A stretch of DNA of 54,525 nt, from UHGV virus genome UHGV-0179380, one strand, 5' to 3'. The stretch comes from a virus. Position numbers and translations under genes: made by a program. Under the pieces are notes generated by a model. It saw only the letters and a program-made list of their open reading frames with translations. It was not told the origin of the DNA and searched no databases. Numbering within the stretch: the stretch's first letter is position 1; every line of letters begins with the position of its first letter. Below, in pieces: positions 38,098 to 38,754 of this stretch.

Positions 38098-38754
38098 TCA
38101 CTTTGATTTTCCGCCTAACTTCGCGTGCTGCTTACTGTCTTCCCATTCATCTGGCATCGGCACAGGACGGAATAGCGGCTGCTTAAATCCATTCCCGCAC
38201 CAAATACATGTTTTCTTCGTGTAGGCGTCGCGGTCTGCAATGTATTCCGGGAAAGCGGGATGTTTATCATCTTCAGGCAGGTAGCCACCGTAAGCGCACG
38301 GATTGAAGATGAAATCCGGTTTACGCCATAACGTTGACAGCACGCCAACAGGATTTTCAACCATCCACGGCACGTTATACATGTTAGCCAGAGATTCAAC
38401 CAACATTGCGTTTCTTGCCGCCTTATTCTGAAAACAAGGATCTTTTCTGTATTTATCAACGAACCAGCGAGCGCCGGACACGGCAAGATCATCACACGGA
38501 GGAAAGCCCAGGATAATGTCAGGATCTGGATATACAGACAATTCAGGGGAGAACATTACCAGAAAATGGCTATCAATCCAGACGTTAACATATTCAATAT
38601 TTGGATGAATTATTTTTACCCCGTCATAATCACCGTGATTAGCGCCGTCATAGTTGAAGCAATAACATTTATAACCAGCGTCAGCCCAATCTTTAACAGC
38701 GTACCCGCTGCCGTCATACAGCGACCACACCACCCAATTTCTAAGCCCGCTCAT
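38098..38754 (-). CDS. atypical short C5-cytosine methyltransferase-like protein
   Basis: 218 aa; motif-I-like LYDGSGY, GFPPCDD (PC with Asp instead of Gln), ENV motif MVENPVG; no obvious target-recognition domain. Confidence 0.45.
   Translation of the reverse strand: MSGLRNWVVWSLYDGSGYAVKDWADAGYKCYCFNYDGANHGDYDGVKIIHPNIEYVNVWIDSHFLVMFSPELSVYPDPDIILGFPPCDDLAVSGARWFVDKYRKDPCFQNKAARNAMLVESLANMYNVPWMVENPVGVLSTLWRKPDFIFNPCAYGGYLPEDDKHPAFPEYIADRDAYTKKTCIWCGNGFKQPLFRPVPMPDEWEDSKQHAKLGGKSK

Follow-up and report, generated by a model that had tools for sequence, protein, structure and literature searches.

The window (the whole 54,525-nucleotide stretch of viral DNA analyzed here, UHGV virus genome UHGV-0179380) carries on its minus strand an open reading frame (ORF) at 38098-38754, which in the program-made ORF list begins with ATG and encodes 218 aa. 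Its product is identical to DAH09735.1 (exact look-up in a protein collection), a Caudoviricetes metagenome assembly record. Three motifs follow one another along the protein (all coordinates on the minus strand): i) LYDGSG, a motif I-like SAM-binding loop at residues 12-17 (38704..38721); ii) the motif IV stretch FPPCDD (38488..38505), part of GFPPCDD at residues 83-89, with the presumed catalytic Cys87; iii) the motif VI triplet ENP at residues 133-135 (38350..38358), which includes Glu133 and lies in the context MVENPVG. The preliminary description had listed a motif-I-like loop, GFPPCDD and "ENV", of which the first two are borne out while the third is actually ENP. The ORF ends in an in-frame TGA at codon 219 (38098..38100, minus strand), past which the frame runs on for 35 codons, TKMIRSLTPRGFARAVFLANDRAINRTTLNRVLPD, to a TAA at 37990-37992. 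This untranslated in-frame tail (37990..38097, minus strand) carries the conserved block TKMIRSLTPRGFARAVFLAN...

Upstream, on the same strand, lie the membrane-protein gene and the NPPY Dam-type gene that had been described as neighbours. The membrane-protein gene (38751..39254; 167 aa, six predicted transmembrane helices; phrog_4899, E 1.1e-46) overlaps the methyltransferase start with its stop (ATGA); between it and the Dam gene is a gene for a DUF6378 protein (39235..39744, minus strand; PF19905, E 3.9e-7). The product of the Dam gene (39719..40258) is a phage Dam-type N6-adenine methyltransferase, scoring far above both cut-offs (PF05869, E 2e-51, 174 bits against 28; TIGR01712, E 2.6e-41, 141 against 97). 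Downstream are NinG, RusA and the antiterminator Q homologue (35724-36452, minus strand; PF03589), co-directional with the methyltransferase and Dam genes, and the same genome also codes for an integrase, a CI-like repressor, ERF, SSB and DnaB. These neighbours mark a temperate coliphage and, within it, the nin (delayed-early) region; relatives of the phage include MagusPhagus and the mEp010/013/044 group. Promoter and terminator counts around the methyltransferase gene were at chance level. Avoidance of CCWGG (the Dcm/EcoRII site) was sought over the whole window as a hint of specificity, and the site was instead over-represented (120 occurrences, where shuffled sequences led one to expect 60 +/- 8), which is common in the DNA of E. 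coli and its phages.

The membrane protein has a very narrow distribution (12 clusters). Its own match to Vut_1 (PF02592) spans nearly the whole profile at E 0.22 (12.3 bits versus a cut-off of 27.2), six of eight homologues match the Vut_1/YhhQ queuosine-precursor transporter family (best E 5e-4), and its model has six helices at low confidence (pLDDT 65), which together point weakly to a YhhQ-type transporter. No 7-deazaguanine pathway genes were present among the early-region ORFs scanned. Between the methyltransferase gene and NinG is a conserved Cys-rich ORF of 58 aa, CNVCSTKKGGCNECNEC (37654-37830, minus strand), called as a gene in the relatives L008 and L009 too. The Q homologue also matches a DnaJ-type CXXCXGXG zinc-finger region (E 3.8e-5, below the Pfam cut-off). 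In E. coli N921 (NZ_CP176484.1, 2618141-2624098) the collinear nin region is ~1 kb longer and includes two genes for HNH endonucleases that look like mobile-element insertions.

A compact phage family and its predicted fold

The 218-aa protein matches phrog_757 ("DNA methyltransferase") over residues 5-218 (E 5e-73) and its best homologue at E 1.9e-142; by these matches the ORF is not a chance reading frame. A total of 1,308 homologues of the window protein were found, and tblastn located homologues in 1,510 phage records, among them Drexlerviridae, rV5-like phages, Klebsiella siphoviruses and Vibrio phages, under annotations that vary between DNA methyltransferase and C5-cytosine methyltransferase. 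An exhaustive search returned 1,341 clusters at 50% identity, whose listed full-length members were nearly all ~210-260 aa; thus the compact size is a trait of the family and not of the window copy. The family appears to be among the most compact of C5-methyltransferases, with a minimal recognition region. The proposal of a repurposed or atypical enzyme falls away, since the protein belongs to a very common, annotated compact phage family with one member of published 5mC activity.

Conservation was read from two alignments in P0001 numbering, one of 60 family members (A1) and one of 76 more diverse members (A2). The D-G-S-G of the loop is conserved in A1, and the Cys87 column is invariant across the 76 diverse members; of the ENP columns, E and P are invariant in both alignments, and N, which does not vary in A1, reaches at least 90% conservation in A2. 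After the catalytic Cys the window protein reads PPC-D-D and most members PPC-T-D. Near the C-terminus the members carry a block K-T-K-x-I-R-S-L-T-P-R-G-F-A, in which A1 shows no variation at R232, S233, R237 and G238, and A2 at least 90% conservation at R232, S233, P236, G238 and A242. This block is absent from the window ORF and is encoded in frame past the TGA.

Direct comparisons with known domains gave little: the window protein had no match in Pfam or NCBIfam, none to PF00145 at E up to 1 and no significant one among PDB sequences, and the family profiles matched PDB sequences only non-significantly, at the N-termini of DNMT3B, where SLFDG aligned with the LYDGSG loop, and M.HaeIII. Of 60 relatives, 24 matched PF00145 weakly, within profile positions ~4-96 of 324, and P0013 alone passed the cut-off (24.7 versus 22 bits, motifs I-IV only). 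Profile-profile comparison was more telling. Against a canonical alignment of ten enzymes (E. coli Dcm and nine diverse phage C5-methyltransferases), hhalign aligned motifs I, IV and VI in canonical order (query 15-148, template 1-118; E 7e-4), LYDGSG pairing with the canonical motif I AGxGG, the Cys87 motif with FPCQ, and ENP with ENV; against E. coli Dcm alone it aligned motif IV only (E 0.05). Hence the HMM comparison proposed in the preliminary description returned nothing in its direct form and succeeded between profiles, and the identity as a C5-methyltransferase-like protein suggested there, with the phrog_757 match and the aligned motifs behind it, was right in substance.

A predicted structure lacking a Rossmann methyltransferase fold had been set beforehand as the refuting test of that identity. 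An AlphaFold2 model was built for P0001, an intact relative 94% identical to the window protein (mean pLDDT 88). The model has the Rossmann-type catalytic domain of a C5-methyltransferase, and a Foldseek search with it ranked DNMT3A/B first (E ~5e-7), so the predicted fold supports the assignment. Its nearest structural neighbours, DNMT3B and the CP-933R prophage methyltransferase, are DNA enzymes.

Past motif VI the family departs from canonical enzymes. The K-x-I-R-S-x-T-P-R of intact relatives falls on the canonical motif IX R-x-L-T-P-R, weakly (E 0.03, nine columns); an initial assignment of RSLTPRGFA to motif X was dropped, as the profile alignment favours motif IX. Motif VI is ~86 residues from this motif IX-like block, versus ~136 in a 306-aa canonical enzyme, and the stretch between the two is not variable but strongly conserved. 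Neither a variable target-recognition domain (TRD) of ~80-100 aa between motifs VIII and IX, sought in the family alignments, nor the motif X pattern GN-x-V-x-P, sought by alignment and profile comparison with canonical enzymes, was found in the family. Compared with type II C5-methyltransferases (PF00145: E. coli Dcm, M.HhaI, M.HaeIII), therefore, the family has ~50 residues fewer between motifs VI and IX, and neither the canonical TRD nor motif X was recognised. Because of this short spacing and the motif X result, the family has a strongly reduced recognition region, as in DNMT3, and the earlier statement that the protein has no TRD was right in spirit. The phage proteins differ from the DNMT3A/DNMT3B catalytic domains in turn: sequence identity is 12-17%, they are ~30-60 residues shorter and without regulatory domains, and no GN/RS-type motif X was identified past their motif IX-like block. 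The compact family seemingly ends just past this block (P0001 residues 229-247), most members stopping ~10 residues later. A partner protein supplying a TRD was considered and rejected, as no partner is common to the lambdoid and Drexlerviridae contexts and the family member K42 Dcm is active when expressed alone.

An active homologue and the inferred role of the intact enzyme

The experimental anchor of the family is the Dcm of K42, a phage with 95.4% genome identity to BASEL phage KarlJaspers. K42 escapers of retron Ec86 (Eco1) had a disrupted 711-bp dcm, and K42 Dcm was reported both as a trigger of the retron and as toxic; its expression led to more 5mC in msDNA by LC-MS, while a C82A/E128A/K175A/K176A mutant gave no rise (bioRxiv 10.1101/2023.08.16.553469; peer-reviewed version, Cell Rep 43:114857). 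That the enzyme is specific for CCWGG was taken over from the name of E. coli Dcm, with msDNA mutagenesis as its sole support (bioRxiv 10.1101/2023.08.16.553469). The KarlJaspers (Bas06) gene bas06_0055, 711 bp and annotated "Dcm-like C5 cytosine methyltransferase", carries C82, E128 and K175/K176 exactly as described for K42 Dcm.

BLASTP gives 56% identity between the window protein and the bas06_0055 product (E 3e-84); for the intact relative P0001 the identity is 61%, C-terminal block included (E 3e-101). Cys87, Glu133 and Lys180/Lys181 of the window protein pair with C82, E128 and K175/K176 of K42 Dcm (numbering checked on KarlJaspers and P0118). The likeness thus extends over a full-length family match, the catalytic Cys, the ENP Glu, the KK pair and the compact size, and the RSLTPRGFA block is common to KarlJaspers Dcm and the intact relative; the window copy, in contrast, stops 35 residues early. 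The settings also differ, the window gene lying in a temperate lambda-like nin region, beside a small membrane-protein gene and two genes from Dam, and the KarlJaspers gene in a virulent Drexlerviridae genome. By analogy with a homologue at 56-61% identity, 5mC activity would be predicted for the intact form.

As in all C5-methyltransferases, the intact enzyme would bind SAM at the DGSG loop, Cys87 would attack C6 of a flipped-out cytosine, Glu133 would protonate N3, and the methyl group would pass to C5. Because it is encoded alongside Dam, NinG, RusA and Q in the nin (delayed-early) region, the enzyme would methylate replicating phage DNA before packaging, with protection from restriction as the presumed benefit. 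An anti-restriction role is plausible but putative, for the family at large as well; in the BASEL study, carriage of these methyltransferase genes did not relate in any simple way to resistance to restriction.

The stop at codon 219

Counted from the N-terminus, the window ORF covers 86% of a 254-aa Dcm-like C5-cytosine methyltransferase, and the 35-codon tail corresponds to the conserved C-terminal block of the family, RTKMIRSLTPRGFARAVF... At codon 219 the relatives have Arg, encoded by CGA in E. coli UMNK88 and phage MagusPhagus, where the flanking bases are identical to those of the window, and by CGT in strain PAR; an ENA contig (L008) shares the TGA of the window. Homologues are consistently longer (227-262 aa), running beyond the end of the window ORF. 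Placing Arg at codon 219 and adding the tail yields exactly P0292, a 254-aa protein found by exact look-up on 30 contigs under the record name "DNA cytosine methyltransferase [Escherichia coli]" (e.g., NCBI EEW8235285.1). This intact E. coli prophage allele is the same as the window protein at every residue, with Arg219 where the window has a stop, whereas 3-4 contigs, 50-200 kb in length, encode the truncated form of 218 aa. The tail differs from those of MagusPhagus and UMNK88 by two synonymous and no non-synonymous changes, which argues that the truncation was recent. Taken together, the existence of the repaired 254-aa form, the CGA of the relatives and the purely synonymous tail differences identify the window gene, at the level of sequence, as a recent single-base nonsense derivative (C-to-T, CGA to TGA) of a common intact gene. 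The 218-aa ORF that had been described is therefore real, although its length is not native, the in-frame TGA cutting off the conserved C-terminal block; likewise the suggested truncation took place, as a single nonsense mutation that removes the last 35 residues and not as evolutionary loss of a TRD.

The SAM loop, Cys87, Glu133 and the KK pair all remain in the window product. Because the 35 lost residues include family-invariant residues and high-confidence terminal helices, the allele is nevertheless most likely catalytically dead; it is their conservation that suggests the importance of the lost residues. The ORF is thus probably an allele, recently inactivated by nonsense truncation, of a "Dcm-like" DNA cytosine-C5 methyltransferase from temperate phages: a gene of known kind, from a family already annotated and experimentally anchored, and here a recent pseudogene.

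Alternatively, the 218-aa product could have kept all or part of its cytosine methyltransferase activity: it retains motifs I, IV and VI together with the K180/K181 pair, every residue altered in the K42 Dcm catalytic mutant (C82, E128, K175, K176) has its equivalent before the stop, and the truncated allele sits on long, otherwise intact prophage contigs. We nonetheless consider this very improbable: four of the 18 columns that never vary in the family alignment fall in the lost segment, as does a terminal helix modelled with high confidence, none of the full-length members listed ends before the C-terminal block, and canonical C5-methyltransferases are not known to tolerate C-terminal motif loss. 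Translational rescue is still less probable in our estimate. It would proceed by low-level read-through of the UGA (in the context UGA-A), giving some full-length protein, or by re-initiation yielding a complementing 33-aa C-terminal peptide, as in split C5-methyltransferases, and it would fit both the perfect preservation of the tail, with no non-synonymous changes, and an in-frame ATG 6 nt (two codons) past the TGA. A recent mutation, however, predicts the same preservation equally well; moreover the Arg of relatives at codon 219 gives no sign of programmed recoding, no obvious Shine-Dalgarno sequence can be read before the re-initiation ATG, and sister alleles carry frameshifts that neither route could rescue.

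Ranked lower again is a sequencing or assembly error at codon 219, with the phage in reality coding for the intact 254-aa enzyme. Only a single base separates the truncated from the common intact allele, and the records of the 218-aa protein in ENA, Logan and NCBI TPA may all go back to one set of reads, assembled anew each time and perhaps from a single sample; yet the TGA is present in the window and in the ENA contig with ~25x coverage (cov_24.7) and on 3-4 long contigs from different pipelines, and a substitution is atypical as an assembly error. Most remote of these alternatives is a family that is not primarily a double-stranded DNA methyltransferase, acting instead on RNA or tRNA (as DNMT2 does), on single-stranded DNA or hairpins, or transferring another group, e.g., carboxymethyl: the closest structural neighbours are DNA enzymes, 5mC itself was what LC-MS detected for K42 Dcm, and the gene travels with Dam in phage DNA-metabolism modules. 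The reading of a recent nonsense truncation carries a practical consequence: the gene should be annotated as a disrupted (pseudogenised) Dcm-like C5-cytosine methyltransferase, not as a novel short enzyme, and phage-directed 5mC is not to be expected in the window phage.

Recurrent disruption in the prophage lineage

Other copies of the gene are disrupted as well. Within the haplotype of the window, L009 (1501-2139) has lost one base near codon 121 and L010 (1130-1960) one base of an A-run near codon 104; E. coli KKa019, a finished genome, has the gene split into two overlapping CDSs (L020, 601-1364), and among public proteins of the clade P0112, P0114 and P0196 have in-frame deletions or fusions (alignment A4). 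Such repeated disruptions could be ordinary prophage decay, or could reflect selection against a toxic, retron Ec86-triggering methyltransferase. In the latter case the nonsense mutation would be one of several independent selected losses, driven by host systems that sense or punish foreign 5mC, with retron Ec86/Eco1 and modification-dependent restriction such as McrBC as candidate drivers; we regard this as unlikely. If true, phage cytosine methylation would be a liability repeatedly discarded by lysogens. The independent disruptions hint that carriage of the gene can be costly, a modest evolutionary point that involves no new system. Intact alleles are still commoner than disrupted ones.
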